The position numbers and the translations under genes were made by a program. From a phage, in the NCBI GenBank assembly GCA_012225525.1, contig GCA_012225525.1_3923.1: a DNA stretch of 64,000 nucleotides, one strand, 5' to 3'. This document shows, piece by piece, positions 17,574-36,401 of this stretch (the stretch's first letter is position 1; the number at the start of each line of letters is the position of its first letter). The notes under the pieces are model-generated. The model saw nothing but the letters and a program-made list of their open reading frames with translations. It made no database searches and was not told the origin of the DNA.

Positions 17574-18130
17574 TTAGTGTACTTCAAGCCAATTCTTACC
17601 AACTTTACCAGTACCAGTTACAAGCGTTTCCTCCTTAAGCCCTAAGTTTCTTGATGCCTGACCATACATCCAGTCAATCACTGCTTTAACATCCTGTGTC
17701 ATCTCTTCTGGGCACTCCCAACTATTCTCATCGTGGTATGCCAAAAGCAATCTAGCACCAATAGCTGGTTTTCGACCATTCAGTTTTGTAAGACCTTCTT
17801 CACAAGTCCTTCTACAAGCAAGGTTGATGGCTTCATTCTGAACCTGACTTTCCGAACCCATGAGCAGATAATTCAATAGTTTGTGTGGAGATTTACACCA
17901 CAACCATGCACCAGCAACCTTTACAAAACCACCTTTAGATATTGCAGCAGTCTTACCAAATACCTCTTCAAGAGCCTTCTTAGTGGCTTTGAAGTCTGCT
18001 TCTAAATTATCTATCAACTTCTTAATTTTAGGGAGGCGTACAAAGTATGTTTGCTTAGTTAAAGCACCCTCCTCAGTTGTAGATGCTTTAATCGTCTTAG
18101 CAAATTTCTCATCGCCAGCCCCGAACAATA
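17574..18130 (-). CDS. DNA polymerase I family (T7 gp5-like), C-terminal exon
   Basis: Begins (L)FGAGDEKFAKT, matching T7 motif B tail YGAGDEKIG; contains motif C LLAYHDEN (T7 WVHDEI) and C-terminal GKNWLEVH (T7 GPNWAICH); first codon is TTG, not ATG. Confidence 0.75.
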
Positions 18131-18932
18131 CATCTGGTCAATACACTCGCAAGGTGTACCAGTTCTCTTATGAACTTCTCCGCATTTCCACGGAGTGTCG
18201 GACTATATCACGTAGCAGTGGTGCTACCGTTGCACTTGGGGATGGTCATTAGCTTACCACCCTACTCTACTCAGTTCATACGTTAAGTATGCTTTTCGAT
18301 AGTCTCTGAACGTTTCTCTGTTAGGAATCTCTATAGTTATGTTATTTACTTAGGTAGTCAATTGCTCTTTGCATATTATCAACACTATCTGCAAGCAACC
18401 CCAAAGCTCTGTTGCAATTGTGGCATAACATACCTCTTACCTTTCCGGTTTTGTGGTCATGGTCAACAACAAGTTTAGCCTTGTGTCGTGAACCATCCAT
18501 GATAAAACCTTCACCACCACAAATTTGACATTTGTAATCACAGTTGCGGAGTAGAGTTTCGACCTCTTCTCTTTCCAAGCCATATGTTCTTAGGTAGTAA
18601 TTCTTAACTCTACCTTTCTCACCGCAATGTGATGAACAATAAACTTGCCTTGCTGTTCTTGGCATGAACACCTTTTCACAGCTAGGGCATTTCTTAGTAA
18701 GAACCCTGTGTTCTGCCCTTCTGTCAAATTTTAATACACAACTTCTGCACCGTTTTTGATTGTATTGGTACGGTTTAAACTCCGTGCCACACTCAGTGCA
18801 TAATCTCTCTTCGTAACCTGCCATTGTCTCTCTCCTTTGTTTTAGGAGTCCTAACAGAGACTTCGCTGCTGATTACCATATCTTTACAGACTTAGGCTTC
18901 CAGCAATTCACAACGTTTTACATGCGCCACTG
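18131..18932 (-). mobile_element. putative group I intron (or intervening homing element) inside the DNA polymerase gene
   Basis: 802 nt separating two halves of polymerase motif B; contains a free-standing HNH ORF with its own RBS; upstream exon frame hits a stop 13 codons after the junction; predicted 5' exon ends in U and insert ends in G. Confidence 0.55.
18342..18824 (-). CDS. HNH homing endonuclease
   Basis: 160 aa; multiple CxxC zinc-ribbon pairs and HNH core VVDHDHKTGKVRGMLCHNCN; RBS AAGGAG upstream. Confidence 0.8.
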   Translation of the reverse strand: MAGYEERLCTECGTEFKPYQYNQKRCRSCVLKFDRRAEHRVLTKKCPSCEKVFMPRTARQVYCSSHCGEKGRVKNYYLRTYGLEREEVETLLRNCDYKCQICGGEGFIMDGSRHKAKLVVDHDHKTGKVRGMLCHNCNRALGLLADSVDNMQRAIDYLSK

Positions 18933-21075
18933 ACGCATAAATACCATTCTTGGCTTTCTTACGACCCTTACTAATTTCTTGAAGAAGGCTTGTATCCTGA
19001 GTAGCTCTACAAGTCAAGATATCTTCCTCTTTATTAAGGCTGAAGTAGATACTATTTAAAGTATGTGCATCAGTTCCTGAGTACACCACGTACAAGTCAT
19101 TTTCCGAATCATAATGCAAATACTTGTCAATCTCTGGGTTTAGATACTGGTCAAAATGTTTGCAATAGTATCTACCATCCTCTTGTTTGACAAACTCAAC
19201 CTCTTCTTTGCCCTCTGTAACTGCTTTGGTGAACTCTTTATCACCCATAAAGTTACACAGTAGTACAAGTTGCGCGCTATTCATATCTGCTGAAACAATA
19301 TTAGTTCCTTCTTCACAAGTCCACACTTCCCTCATAGGTGCTCCATAGACAGCAGCACCAGACGGTACGTTTACAATACCATACTGTGTCATACGTCCAG
19401 TTGAAGTACCAAATACCATTGCACCAGCACTAAGGCGACCATCTGGACGAATCTGGTTTAGCCAACCTTTCTCATCATCCTTTGAGTTCTCAATAGTTCT
19501 GCGTCTGTGCATCAAAGTATAGTACTTAGCAATCTTCTGTCCAAGCTCACCTTCAATCGTATCATAAGATGATTCCGTAAGTTTTGGTGAAGTACGGATT
19601 AAGCAAGGTTCAAGCAAATCTGTGTACTTCTTCACAGACCAGTTATGTTCAATGTACTGGACACCTTCATGTTCAACATAACTCAAACCACACCGTTCAA
19701 CCATCTCCTGCCACTTAGGATGTTTTGTAATCATCTTTTTGTTGTCTTTGAAACGACAAACTTTGACAGGGCGACCATCTGAGTCTTTCTTGTAGTTCCA
19801 GTCATCTGGAATCCAACCAACTGATTTCAAGTAGTCTTTAACAACTGCTACCTGAGTCATACGAGAAACTTCAAACTCAATTGGTGTATATGGTGCATCA
19901 ATCAATCCTGTGTAGCGACTTGACTCCAGTTCAAAGTGGTTAACAACATGGCTGTTATAGTACTTCACAGTCTTAACAGTTTTTACTGGCTTCCAGTCTT
20001 TGCACTTCTTACCAATCTTTGCGTTCAACTCATTGCAAATTGCACGAGCATCCTTCATTGCTACAAAACCTTCCTTGTACTCTTCACCAGTTACAGAGTT
20101 GGTTGGTGTATAGCAATTTCTCTTTTCAATGTTAAAAATCTTTGTAGTTGGCTTACCAAATGGTTTGATTTCGTATGTCTGCATCTCACCGTTACGTACC
20201 TGCTGACGGTACTTCGTCTTAGGGTACTTGGTAATTCTCTTCAGTCCATCTGCATGACCGAATGTTTCAACATACTCATTCCAAGCTTTTGCAAACTCTT
20301 CTCCAGTGACTTTACCTTTGGTCTTAATAGTTGGAGGTAGATGTGGTTCAACCTCTGAAGCAAGCTCATTAGTCAACTTGTCAAGTTCCTTTACATGGAA
20401 CTCCATAAGCTCTTTATCAGCTTTCCAACCATTGATAGCTTGTTGACTCATCCAGAAAGATGTTTCTTTAGCTCGCATATAGGTTTCATAAGTGTCTATG
20501 CCACACTTCTTAAGCTTGAGATACTCATTATCAAGTGCTCGTTTAGTTTTGGCGTTAATACGAATATCTTCTACAACACGGGTGAAGATTTCTGCATTCC
20601 ACACACCCCAATGCTCAATCTCTGGCTTACGAACACCGACACGAGCACCCCATGCAGCCAAACCATGAGCACCTTTATAACCCTTTGGAGTTGGTCTATC
20701 CATCCACTGAACACGAGACTGGATAAGAGAATCCTGAAAGAAATTACTCCACGGCTTACATTTTGGATTATCAAAGTTCCATAAATCCGGTGCAATGTGA
20801 TTGAAGACCCACCAGTCATAACCGAGGCCGTTATGGATACAAAGTCGTTTTGCCTTTAACGCAAACTCAACACCTTCACGTAAACCACCCTTAATGTACT
20901 TAGTGTACTTGTGACCGAGGATAGGCTCATCTGTAAAGACCCATACAGGTGGCTCTTCATCGTCAGATTTATAATCTGCGAAAGCCATTACGTGAACTTT
21001 AGTGAACTCAAGGAGTAAACCATCAGTTTCTGTATCACCAACTAAATGTAAGTTTTTAAAATCTACGTTTTCCAT
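18892..21075 (-). CDS. DNA polymerase I family (T7 gp5-like), N-terminal exon: 3'-5' exonuclease plus start of polymerase domain
   Basis: Exo I motif LVGDTETDGL; ends with RKKAKNGIYA (T7 RDNAKTFIYG, motif B); likely start is the Met of MENVDF, preceded by AGGGAG RBS; coordinates run to the in-frame stop, predicted splice donor near 18933. Confidence 0.8.
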   Translation of the reverse strand: MENVDFKNLHLVGDTETDGLLLEFTKVHVMAFADYKSDDEEPPVWVFTDEPILGHKYTKYIKGGLREGVEFALKAKRLCIHNGLGYDWWVFNHIAPDLWNFDNPKCKPWSNFFQDSLIQSRVQWMDRPTPKGYKGAHGLAAWGARVGVRKPEIEHWGVWNAEIFTRVVEDIRINAKTKRALDNEYLKLKKCGIDTYETYMRAKETSFWMSQQAINGWKADKELMEFHVKELDKLTNELASEVEPHLPPTIKTKGKVTGEEFAKAWNEYVETFGHADGLKRITKYPKTKYRQQVRNGEMQTYEIKPFGKPTTKIFNIEKRNCYTPTNSVTGEEYKEGFVAMKDARAICNELNAKIGKKCKDWKPVKTVKTVKYYNSHVVNHFELESSRYTGLIDAPYTPIEFEVSRMTQVAVVKDYLKSVGWIPDDWNYKKDSDGRPVKVCRFKDNKKMITKHPKWQEMVERCGLSYVEHEGVQYIEHNWSVKKYTDLLEPCLIRTSPKLTESSYDTIEGELGQKIAKYYTLMHRRRTIENSKDDEKGWLNQIRPDGRLSAGAMVFGTSTGRMTQYGIVNVPSGAAVYGAPMREVWTCEEGTNIVSADMNSAQLVLLCNFMGDKEFTKAVTEGKEEVEFVKQEDGRYYCKHFDQYLNPEIDKYLHYDSENDLYVVYSGTDAHTLNSIYFSLNKEEDILTCRATQDTSLLQEISKGRKKAKNGIYASVAHVKRCELLEA

Positions 21076-21331
21076 TTTTACTCCCTCTAAAATCATTAAC
21101 CTCATACATTACTGCAAAAAATTATAAAAAGCAAGTTGACAATGTACTTGACAAGGTGTTAATCTTTGCGAAGTGGGTTTTACTTAAAAGGTTACTTAAC
21201 AGTTTAACTATACAGATACTTTAAAACTCTTAAAAGATTATTTAATAGCTTTTAAAAAGCTTTAAAGTATAACGTATAGAATACGTTAAGATAAAAGATT
21301 AAAACTTAATAGTTACTTAAAAGAGGCTTAC

Positions 21332-34256: not shown

Positions 34257-36401
34257 ATGAACAAAGTGCAGATTATTAAAAAGAATGGCTCACTCGAAGA
34301 ACCTGATATCAAAAAAGTTTTAGCAGCAGTCACAAAGTCAGCTAATAGGGTTGGTTATAAAGAGCTTCCACCAGATGTTACTCAAGCTCTTGAGTCAGCA
34401 TTTATGAGGATTCTGGTAAAGTCCGCTAAGCAGAATAATTTGCTTATCTCGGTAAATGATATTCACAGTATTGTTGAAGGTGCTTTGGCAGAAGTTAATC
34501 ACGAGATTTATGAGTCTTACTCAACATATAGAAATTACCGTAAAGAAGTTGCTCAAAATTGGGATGAACTCTACCAGAAGACCAAAGATACACTCTTCTT
34601 AGGTGACAGAGAGAATGCTAACTTTGACAGCAGTTTAATTTCTACAAAAGGTTCAATTATTCGTGGTTATCTGACTAAAGAAATCTTTAAACAGTACCAT
34701 TTAACACCAGAGGAACTTGAAGCCATTGAAAAAGGGTTTATCTATATCCATGATTTAAGAGACCTAATCTTTGGTGGTATCAACTGTTGCCTGTTTGACA
34801 TTGGTAAAGTCCTGAAAGGTGGCTTTGAAATGTCTGGCATCGAATATTGTGAACCAAAGTCTGTGCTGTCGGCCTTACAGGTTATTGGTGACGTAGTTCT
34901 TTCAGCAACTGCACAGCAATTTGGTGGCTTTACTTTAGCAGAGATTGATAAGGTACTTGTACCGTATGCTAAGAAGTCTCTACGCTATCATGCTGAGAAA
35001 GCAGCATCTTATGGTATTCCTAAAGAACATTACCACAATTATGTCATGGAGCAGCTACAGATTGAACTAACTCAAGGTTTCCAGTCACTTGAAATGAAAC
35101 TAAATACCGTACCTTGTAGCCGTGGGGATTTTGCATTTACAACTTTGACATTCGGGTTACTTGACTCAGATATGTCTAATGAAGATAACCGACTGCAATA
35201 TATGATTGCAAGTACTCTCCTAGATGTTCGTATGAATGGACAAGGTAAGAGCAAGAAACCTGTTGTATTCCCTAAACTGGTTTATATTTATGACCAGAAG
35301 AGACATAATGAGAATATCTGTCAAGGCCACCTGTACAGTAAAGCTATAGAGTGTTGCTCTAAAGCGATGTATCCAGATTTCTTAAGTGTATCTGGTCATG
35401 GTGCTGTAGCAGAAGCTTTTGAGCGTTCTGGCAAGGTAATCTCGCCGATGGGTTGTAGAGCCTTCTTATCTCCATATCTTAACGAGGATGGGGAAGAGTT
35501 CTACGTTGGTCGTGCTAACATTGGTGCTGTATCTTTGAACTTACCAATGATTTACCAGTATTCTAAAGAGAATGGTTTAGATTTCTGGAAAGAGCTTGAT
35601 AAGTACCTAGAGATGATTCGCAGCTTCCACAAGAAACGCTACGAAATGATTGCTAATATGCCAGCAAGTTCTAACCCTCTTGCGTTCACACAAGGTGGTC
35701 TGTACAAAGGAACTAAGAAACCTACTGACAAGGTTGGTTGGGATATTGTGAAGTCCTTCACAGCTTCTTTTGGTGTTACTGCGCTTGATGAGTTGTCTGT
35801 TCTTGCTGAAGGTAAACGACTTCATGAAGTTGGAAGCTATAGTTTTGCATATGATGTTCTGGCATACATTAACATGAAAACCGAAGAGTTTAAAAATGAA
35901 GATGACTTCTTATATGCCGTCTATGGTACTCCAGCAGAATCACTATGTGGGACTCAGCTAAAACAGTTCAGAGATATGTTTGGGGTTATCAAAGGTGTTT
36001 CCGATAAGGAATACTTTACAAATAGTTTCCATATGAATGTTGCAGCAGACATCTCACCATTTGAGAAGCAGGACTTAGAAGAGCCATTCTTCCATATCTG
36101 TAGAGGCGGTAGAATCCAGTATGTAAGAGTAGCTAACCCAGAAAACTTAACAGCACTTAAAAGTTGTATTACAAGAGGTATGTTGAAAGGTTTCTATCAG
36201 GGACTTAACTTTGACTTAGCAATCTGTGAACATTGTGGTAACAGGCCAAAGGCTGATGTTGAAGAATGTGAAGTTTGTCACTCACATGATATCTCTGTGA
36301 TTAACAGGGTGTGTGGGTATCTTGGATGGACTAAGATTAAAGGTGAATCCCGAATGAACGATGCAAAAATCGCTGAGATTCGTGACAGGGTTTCTATGTA
36401 A
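34257..36401 (+). CDS. nrdD: anaerobic ribonucleoside-triphosphate reductase (class III)
   Basis: 714 aa; C-terminal zinc ribbon CEHCGN...CEVCHSHD followed by glycyl-radical motif RVCGYLG. Confidence 0.85.
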   Translation: MNKVQIIKKNGSLEEPDIKKVLAAVTKSANRVGYKELPPDVTQALESAFMRILVKSAKQNNLLISVNDIHSIVEGALAEVNHEIYESYSTYRNYRKEVAQNWDELYQKTKDTLFLGDRENANFDSSLISTKGSIIRGYLTKEIFKQYHLTPEELEAIEKGFIYIHDLRDLIFGGINCCLFDIGKVLKGGFEMSGIEYCEPKSVLSALQVIGDVVLSATAQQFGGFTLAEIDKVLVPYAKKSLRYHAEKAASYGIPKEHYHNYVMEQLQIELTQGFQSLEMKLNTVPCSRGDFAFTTLTFGLLDSDMSNEDNRLQYMIASTLLDVRMNGQGKSKKPVVFPKLVYIYDQKRHNENICQGHLYSKAIECCSKAMYPDFLSVSGHGAVAEAFERSGKVISPMGCRAFLSPYLNEDGEEFYVGRANIGAVSLNLPMIYQYSKENGLDFWKELDKYLEMIRSFHKKRYEMIANMPASSNPLAFTQGGLYKGTKKPTDKVGWDIVKSFTASFGVTALDELSVLAEGKRLHEVGSYSFAYDVLAYINMKTEEFKNEDDFLYAVYGTPAESLCGTQLKQFRDMFGVIKGVSDKEYFTNSFHMNVAADISPFEKQDLEEPFFHICRGGRIQYVRVANPENLTALKSCITRGMLKGFYQGLNFDLAICEHCGNRPKADVEECEVCHSHDISVINRVCGYLGWTKIKGESRMNDAKIAEIRDRVSM

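Follow-up and report, generated by a model that had tools for sequence, protein, structure and literature searches.

Group I introns of subgroup IA2 interrupt the family A DNA polymerase genes of several phages, among them SPO1, SP82 and Bastille (which encode I-HmuI, I-HmuII and I-BasI), Pf-WMP3 (I-PfoP3I), phiL7, and PhiI/W31. These classical introns carry an open reading frame (ORF) for an endonuclease of the ββα-metal type in a peripheral loop, which is that of P6a in PhiI, W31 and Pf-WMP3 (PMC3428280), and they occupy sites 674, 676 and 881 in the numbering of E. coli Pol I (PMC3428280), the last being the site of PhiI/W31 (Bonocora and Shub 2004, as cited by Kong et al. 2012). The polymerase intron of Pseudomonas phage LUZ24 is spliced in vivo, as reported in 2008 and re-confirmed by Putzeys et al. 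2024, with reverse transcription PCR (RT-PCR) and long-read cDNA as evidence (PMC10914365). Here we describe an insert of 802 nt in the polymerase gene of a 64,000-nt stretch of phage DNA (contig GCA_012225525.1_3923.1, hereafter the window), which shares with the classical introns the family A host gene, a ββα-metal endonuclease ORF in a peripheral loop, and a ribozyme of predicted subgroup IA2. On the basis of its sequence, this insert is with high probability a mobile group I intron that is functional or was so until recently. An earlier note on this DNA had put it forward as a candidate, and the proposal is supported by ORF-less copies that exceed the Rfam gathering score, by intron-less alleles, by a predicted structure, by the flanking exon bases, and by the homology of the encoded endonuclease.

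The polymerase region of the window (3.5 kb) is 97.8% identical in DNA sequence to that of Salmonella phage Sl26 and 88-96% identical to that of many Felix O1-like phages, and by its sequence the window phage is a member of this group (Felixounavirus, Ounavirinae). A GenBank search with this region gave matches in 261 phage records, and the relatives fall into three length classes, having either the whole of a 1.5-kb test segment, about 530 nt less, or about 800 nt less; representatives of each were aligned. Alignment with the intron-less polymerase genes of ESCO49 and ESh22, each annotated as a single coding sequence (CDS), delimits the insert as 18932..18131. Where these two genes read ...GGTATCTATGCAC|TGCTGTTCGG..., the window reads ...GGTATTTATGCGT, followed by the 802 nt and then by TATTGTTCGG...; at the junction itself, TATGCAC|TGCTGTTC in the intron-less genes corresponds to TATGCGT-[802 nt]-TATTGTTC in the window, and both encode Y-A-L-L-F-G. 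The last base of exon 1 is a U (18933) and that of the insert a G (18131), which agrees to the base with the splice sites proposed in the earlier note, and the comparison with uninterrupted genes of relatives that the note had called for (27 intron-less alleles) defines the junction exactly.

Removal of the insert joins exon 1 (2173 nt) to exon 2 (557 nt) in one open frame of 2730 nt, coding for a polymerase of 909 aa that reads GIYA-LL-FGAGDEK across the junction, as had been predicted; the RNA of the ligated exons would read UAUGCGU|UAUUGUUC, and the peptide spanning the junction NGIYALLFGAGDEK. In the unspliced gene, the minus-strand ORF of exon 1 (21105..18892), whose exon part ends ...KGRKKAKNGIYA, enters the insert as SVAHVKRCELLEA and closes after these 13 codons at a UAA (18894-18892). 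The ORF of exon 2 is listed from a TTG at 18128 to 17574, beginning MFGAGDEKFAKT... / (M)FGAGDEKFAKT, and its frame opens three codons past a TGA stop. All of these exon and insert elements, including the early stop of exon 1 and the opening of exon 2 at a TTG just after a stop, lie where the earlier note had placed them. At the 5' end of the gene, the longest ORF starts at 21105, and relatives have their annotated start 3 codons downstream of this (21096, in Sl26) or, judging by the CDS lengths of others, 10 codons downstream (21075). The frame and the stop codons exclude an intein or any other in-frame insertion at the protein level, for which nothing speaks except that an endonuclease sits within a conserved motif of the polymerase: 802 nt is not a multiple of three, the exon frame closes after 13 codons, and the endonuclease gene has a start codon and a ribosome-binding site of its own.

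Joining the two exons restores a motif B of T7 type, as anticipated from their sequences. The motif aligns to residues 518-533 of T7 DNA polymerase (RDNAKTFIYGFLYGAG), and the corresponding part of the joined C-terminal region, GRKKAKNGIYALLFGAGDEK, aligns on T7 residues 517-536 (TRDNAKTFIYGFLYGAGDEK). The insertion lies in the sequence coding for the O-helix (motif B), where it follows base 1 of the codon that corresponds to T7 residue 528. From the alignment of this motif, in which R754/K758 correspond to T7 R518/K522, we take the site to be at about 764 in E. coli Pol I numbering. The break thus falls inside the O-helix, between the equivalents of T7 Y526 and Y530, a position that bears on the alternative raised in the earlier note, a polymerase gene physically split by a homing endonuclease. 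On this view, two polypeptides of about 737 and 184 aa, made without any splicing, would assemble into an active enzyme. The nrdA gene of phage Aeh1, split by mobE, is a described case of such genes in pieces, and GenBank records of relatives do show two separate 'DNA polymerase' CDSs with an 'endonuclease VII'; in addition, the TTG at 18128 could formally start exon 2. However, a break within the O-helix argues against this explanation, as does the lack of a start for the second half: we could find neither an ATG nor a Shine-Dalgarno sequence ahead of exon 2, where the only nearby ATG is out of frame, and a scan for promoters and terminators gave no site inside the intron.

The identity of the ribozyme is best seen in copies of the insert that have no endonuclease gene. 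Phages D1-2 and tootiki have the same insert with a length of 268 nt and without the ORF, and Mushroom has a version of 311 nt from which the ORF has been lost; in the window, the segment missing from Mushroom is flanked by CCUAA, which suggests a deletion between short repeats. When compared with the group I intron model of Rfam (RF00028, Intron_gpI), these copies match it over its full length (1-253) with 62.1 bits (D1-2), 61.3 bits (tootiki) and 62.3 bits (Mushroom), against a gathering score of 50, and with E-values of about 1e-14. They also speak against a physically split gene, as the 268-nt copies still interrupt the polymerase in the absence of any endonuclease gene. The first 77 nt of the window intron are 97-100% identical, and the last 190 nt 96-99.5% identical, to those of the ORF-less and other alleles. 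Since its ribozyme parts are 96-100% identical to the ORF-less copies, the group I assignment carries over to the window. Moreover, the core elements of the window (AAUUGCUGG, AAUCAGCAGC, GUUCAGAGACUA and GAUAUAGUCC) match those of the RF00028 consensus (AAUUGCGGG, AAuCCGCAGC, GUUCAaAGACUA and GAUAUAGUC).

A P1-P9 group I structure, whose absence the earlier note had named as a ground for dropping the intron, can be folded for the window RNA: all of the helices P1, P10, P3-P9, P7.1/7.2 and P9.1/9.2 could be placed, including the P3/P7 pseudoknot (Table 1). The group I rule invoked in that note, by which the exon ends in U and the intron in G, holds here, with a U·G pair in P1 and an omega-G at 18131, and it is invariant in 11 distinct alleles, as is the pairing of P1. 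Minimum-energy folding of the 3' domain alone recovers P7, P7.1, P7.2, P8, P9, P9.1 and P9.2 in both the window and D1-2, and that of the 5' domain recovers P1, P4, P5 and P6. In ORF-less alleles the loop of P6a is UUAA. The presence of P7.1/P7.2 in this model, together with an ORF in P6a, points to subgroup IA2, to which other polymerase introns of phages have also been assigned (PMC3428280). One allele, that of FSL SP-107, has a longer P8 with extra UAC repeats (GUAGUAUUACUACUACUACUAC).

Table 1. Positions in the window of the interrupted polymerase gene, its intron and the endonuclease gene, with the predicted helices of the intron RNA
Feature	Position	Strand	Description
DNA polymerase exon 1	18933..21105	-	family A; contains 3'-5' exonuclease domain, thumb and part of the fingers, ending midway through motif B
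DNA polymerase exon 2	17574..18130	-	rest of motif B, motif C and C-terminus; stop 17576-17574
Group I intron	18131..18932	-	802 nt, IA2-like, without P2; starts CAGUGGCGCAU, ends CCAGAUG, omega-G at 18131
Homing endonuclease gene	18342..18824	-	160 aa, ββα-metal nuclease of Endo VII / DHHRN type
P1	18922..18938	-	exon AUGCGU (18938-18933) with internal guide GCGCAU (18927-18922); U·G at splice site
P10	18932-18928 + 18130-18126	-	intron CAGUG (in P1 loop) with UAUUG, first five bases of exon 2
P3	18915-18911 + 18232-18228	-	CGUUG with CAACG
P4, P5, P5a	18906-18866	-	GUAA tetraloop; contains stop UAA of exon 1 frame (18894-18892); from Rfam alignment and minimum-energy fold
P6/P6a	18315..18860	-	12-bp stem, UCUCUGUUAGGA (18860-18849) with UCCUAACAGAGA (18326-18315); 522-nt loop holds the whole ORF
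Ribozyme 3' domain	18131..18304	-	P7 to omega-G; from minimum-energy fold, pair counts and covariance model
P7	18304-18299 + 18206-18201	-	GACUAU with AUAGUC
P7.1	18291-18277	-	
P7.2	18262-18240	-	
P8	18227-18212	-	
P9	18195-18178	-	
P9.1	18176-18161	-	
P9.2	18160-18136	-	

The exon bases that flank the insert are consistent with this structure. We compared 42 alleles at the junction, from GenBank loci and from those 31 of 32 IMG/VR loci that span it. All 15 intron-bearing alleles read UAUGCGU|UAUUG, and none of the 27 intron-less alleles has both the P1 and the P10 exon halves, the variants being UAUGCAC|UGCUG, UACGCCC|UGUUA and other synonymous ones. At the DNA level, the polymerase genes of wV8 and ESCO49 read TATGCAC|TGCTG, and SUSP2 has the variant TATGCGT|TACTG. 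The bases that differ between intron-bearing and intron-less junctions are exactly those paired in P1 and P10, a pattern to be expected if homing co-converts the neighbouring exon bases, if splicing selects for them, or if both occur. Such exon complementarity, strictly tied to the presence of the insert, is a further argument against a gene simply cut in two, an explanation that we now consider very improbable. The distribution of the intron is in line with mobility as well. Phages whose flanking exon segments of 300 nt are only 73-90% identical have ribozymes that are 96-100% identical, and the intron core is present in about 97 Felix-like records among the 261 GenBank records that match the polymerase, with an ORF at least 60% identical to that of the window in 44 records. 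The site is empty in many well-known members, such as wV8, UAB_Phi87, and Mooglevirus and Suspvirus phages; among the 31 IMG/VR loci spanning the junction, 25 are empty, five have the intron with its ORF, and one is ORF-less. The coexistence of these three allelic states indicates that all three stages of the homing cycle are present in the genus.

A free-standing HNH-AP2 endonuclease gene, which encodes 167-187 aa and occurs in at least five variants, abuts or overlaps the end of the polymerase gene in many Felixounaviruses (loci L015-L045 and L003-L005), at the equivalent of position ~17570 and below in the window, from which the gene is absent. Its occurrence does not track the state of the intron, as Si3, BPS17W1 and 15 of 25 intron-less loci have it. 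We considered whether it might drive collaborative homing of the ORF-less introns, and rejected this possibility on account of its presence in those 15 intron-less loci and in one allele having both intron and ORF.

Several points weigh against the assignment as an active mobile intron and have to be set against the evidence above. At the Rfam gathering score of 50, RF00028 has no match in the window itself. A permissive scan gave a partial match to P4-P6 at 18905..18815, of 24.6 bits (E = 8e-4 in a 1.3-kb scan and 0.04 in the whole window, where it was the sole signal of this family), and the 3' part of the intron, scanned alone, gave no match. The covariance scan suggested in the earlier note was therefore negative for the window itself but positive for the ORF-less copies (61-62 bits), the window falling below the threshold because the model is unable to span the P6a loop, whose 522 nt contain the endonuclease ORF. 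Covariation is thin, because Felix-type alleles are about 96% identical: only seven of 84 pairs vary, of which two change on both sides (U-A to C-G at the base of P6, and C-G to U-A in P8) and five on one side with the pairing kept, as is the case in P7.1 and P7.2. The high paired fraction over the 15 helices and 11 distinct alleles (99.9% of cells, with a single unpaired cell, in one of the seven variable pairs, versus 28-46% with slid partners) is partly circular, since the structure was drawn from the same sequences. The model with which we compared other lineages was built solely from Felix-type 3' domains and its E-values are rough; with it, Berlin-type introns (see below) score 28.3 bits, that of LUZ24 20.6 bits (E ~1e-4) and that of Jarilo 18.7 bits, and intron-less loci give no match. 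These matches across lineages in which helices have been replaced lend support to the modelled structure, but they are themselves fitted to the model. We could find no RNA evidence for splicing of a Felix-type intron in searchable sources, and we infer the splicing of the window intron from its sequence. In the same way, we infer the activity and the target site of its endonuclease by analogy with relatives.

Finally, isolated 5' domains prefer, when folded, an AACGUU/AACGUU pairing over P3. The existence of this alternative pairing is one of the observations that would fit a decayed group I intron, which no longer self-splices efficiently and either needs a host or phage protein, or translation of the pre-mRNA, or acts, instead of being a neutral parasite, as a regulatory brake on polymerase production. 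Growth state and translation are known to influence the splicing of phage introns (Sandegren and Sjöberg 2007, as cited in PMC10914365), and in pooled samples spliced reads made up only a minor share of those of LUZ24 (PMC10914365). We consider such decay unlikely, as the core elements agree with the Rfam group I consensus, variation almost always keeps the pairing, and about 97 independently isolated, viable lytic phages have the intron in an essential gene.

If the intron is functional, its operation would be that of a mobile group I element. The polymerase gene would be transcribed as a single pre-mRNA, in which the intron would fold with the U·G pair of P1 at the 5' splice site, the P3-P9 core and P10, and would excise itself by two guanosine-initiated transesterifications, leaving ligated exons that would encode the single 909-aa polymerase. 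Ribosomes on unspliced RNA would halt at the stop codon 13 codons past the start of the intron. If the endonuclease acts as its relatives do, it would attack polymerase alleles of co-infecting phages that lack the intron, cutting or nicking them close to the insertion site, and the ensuing repair would copy the intron into the empty allele (homing).

The HNH-type ORF that the earlier note had recognized in the insert is present, together with its ribosome-binding site, a Shine-Dalgarno sequence AAGGAG at 18837-18832, 7 nt upstream of the AUG. The encoded protein matches Pfam PF02945 (Endonuclease_7) with 70.2 bits (cut-off 23.6), the motif covering residues 79-159 of 160, and it also matches PHROGs annotated as endonuclease VII; its closest solved relatives among PDB matches are Hpy99I and T4 Endo VII. 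The catalytic residues are intact (CQIC99, DHDH121-124, R130 and CHNC-N138). The N-terminal part contains CxxC motifs at C9, C26 and C46, whose sequence suggests zinc-ribbon-like modules for DNA binding. I-HmuI-type enzymes are classical HNH endonucleases with NUMOD domains, unlike the Endo VII-type enzyme of the window. The catalytic residues of the window enzyme make up the DHHRN signature by which Fang et al. 2018 characterise homing endonucleases of Endo VII type, and these authors place the motif at the C-terminus in the endonuclease clade and at the N-terminus in resolvases (PMC6083498); in the window enzyme it is C-terminal, as in the endonuclease clade. In the minimum-energy fold, the Shine-Dalgarno sequence can pair locally with an upstream CUCCU to form a hairpin, which suggests that expression of the endonuclease may be restrained. 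In VpaE1 the intron has 780 nt instead of 802, and its endonuclease ORF may be damaged.

The closest relatives of the intron are in sister Felixounaviruses. JH2, EC6, FSL SP-010 and 2 JES-2013 have an orthologous element at the same site, with a ribozyme 96-100% identical to that of the window, and over 3.5 kb the DNA of the window is 95% identical to JH2 and 88% to EC6 and FSL SP-010. Outside the genus, the closest ORFs are 50-52% identical and are all found in polymerase introns, those of Berlin-like Yersinia phages, Pectobacterium phage Jarilo and LUZ24. LUZ24 shares with the window the family A polymerase as host gene, the O-helix of motif B as target, an endonuclease of Endo VII type, and the U and G at the ends of exon and intron. 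The two endonucleases are 52% identical over 116 aa (comparison with LUZ24 gp35), that of the window being longer by about 42 residues at the N-terminus, where it has two additional CxxC motifs (C9 and C26). The LUZ24 site (published intron coordinates 19143-19811) is 6 nt upstream of that of the window, after the first base of the codon equivalent to Tyr526. LUZ24 differs in being a podovirus of Pseudomonas, in having an ORF that extends up to the P7 region, and in the sequences of its helices.

In Berlin-like Yersinia phages of the T7 group (Berlin, Yepe2, Yep-phi and YpP-G) and in Jarilo, an intron in gene 5 also interrupts motif B; the gene is annotated as a joined CDS in Yepe2. These hosts are podoviruses, their intron has 677-680 nt, and its endonuclease is again of Endo VII type, 50% identical to that of the window. 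The order of helices predicted by minimum-energy folding is the same as in the window (P7, P7.1, P7.2, P8, P9, P9.1, P9.2), and P9.1 is identical, with a common 15-mer, AGUUCAUAAGAGAAC. The Berlin-type site is 11 nt upstream of that of the window, at RDNAKTF|IYG, after the second base of the codon for Phe524, a boundary placed by the U/G rule. Berlin-type, LUZ24 and window introns are therefore inserted at sites 5 and 6 nt apart, in the same 11-nt stretch of the O-helix, in unrelated phage groups (Berlin-like podoviruses of the T7 group, LUZ24-like podoviruses and Felix O1-like myoviruses). One might tentatively imagine, although we doubt it more than we believe it, that a single endonuclease lineage recognising motif-B DNA has repeatedly carried or recruited a ribozyme to slightly shifted sites across phage families. 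If this were true, the motif-B hotspot would offer a ready-made series in which to follow shifts of group I introns from one insertion site to another. As for the classical introns, a tblastn match in Pf-WMP3 proved to be a different, free-standing Endo VII gene, and I-PfoP3I was discarded as a homologue of the window endonuclease.

A further match to the Felix-type 3'-domain model lies outside DNA polymerase genes. In the N4-like Escherichia phage vB_EcoP-ZQ2 (NC_070874.1; positions 587-749 of locus L047), the model gives 54 bits (E ~3e-13), the best score outside the genus among the loci examined. The match is an unannotated insert between two 'RNA polymerase' CDS fragments, adjoining an HNH endonuclease gene; here, a related group I intron probably interrupts an RNA polymerase gene.

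In the literature on Felix O1-like phages, we found no more on this intron than a count of introns in one phage and a one-line mention. According to the genome paper of Felix O1, the phage has no introns (PMC3185647), and later papers on the genus describe only homing endonucleases inserted into genes (PMC3728262). For Felixounavirus SPJ41, 'two introns' are counted among the non-coding RNAs, without detail (PMC9951933). Fang et al. 2018 (Mob DNA 9:27) include the Endo VII-motif proteins of JH2, EC6, FSL SP-010 and 2 JES-2013 in a tree under the label 'intron-encoded' (PMC6083498), and in the section of that paper on these phages the label stands alone, without splice sites, structure, allele distribution or experiment. 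Since JH2, EC6 and FSL SP-010 are carriers of the orthologue, the element has already been recognised in print, in passing. Among the GenBank records inspected, none annotates an intron; the gene is entered as two 'DNA polymerase' fragments plus 'endonuclease VII', and some records place a spurious ORF across the ribozyme. The Sl26 record has a 'hypothetical protein' CDS on the opposite strand within the ribozyme 3' domain (equivalent to 18170-18286, plus strand, of the window), which is almost certainly a gene-calling artefact.

The intron is an ordinary member of a well-known class of selfish elements, and what we add is modest: the exact junction, a structural map, an account of the three allelic states and of the exon bases that mark them, and a set of three related introns at staggered sites in motif B. 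Its chief value is for annotation, as about 97 Felix O1-like genomes in GenBank carry it. Felix O1-like phages are widely proposed for the biocontrol of Salmonella and E. coli. For intron biology, the genus is useful in showing side by side the empty site, the intron with its endonuclease gene, and the intron without it, although neither these stages of homing nor the staggered series alter what is known of how such elements work.

The setting of the locus agrees with that in Sl26, where the gene order is DNA ligase, polymerase fragments, primase/helicase and genes of nucleotide metabolism. We could find no tRNA genes in the 64,000-nt window; the Felix O1 genome paper reports 22, and the tRNA cluster must be located outside the window. 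We also considered a second intron, in nrdD, the gene for the anaerobic ribonucleotide reductase, which in Sl26 is split by an HNH gene. This candidate was rejected, as nrdD of the window is uninterrupted and has no Rfam signal (35350-36400); the gene (34257-36401, plus strand) is a single unbroken ORF of 714 aa.

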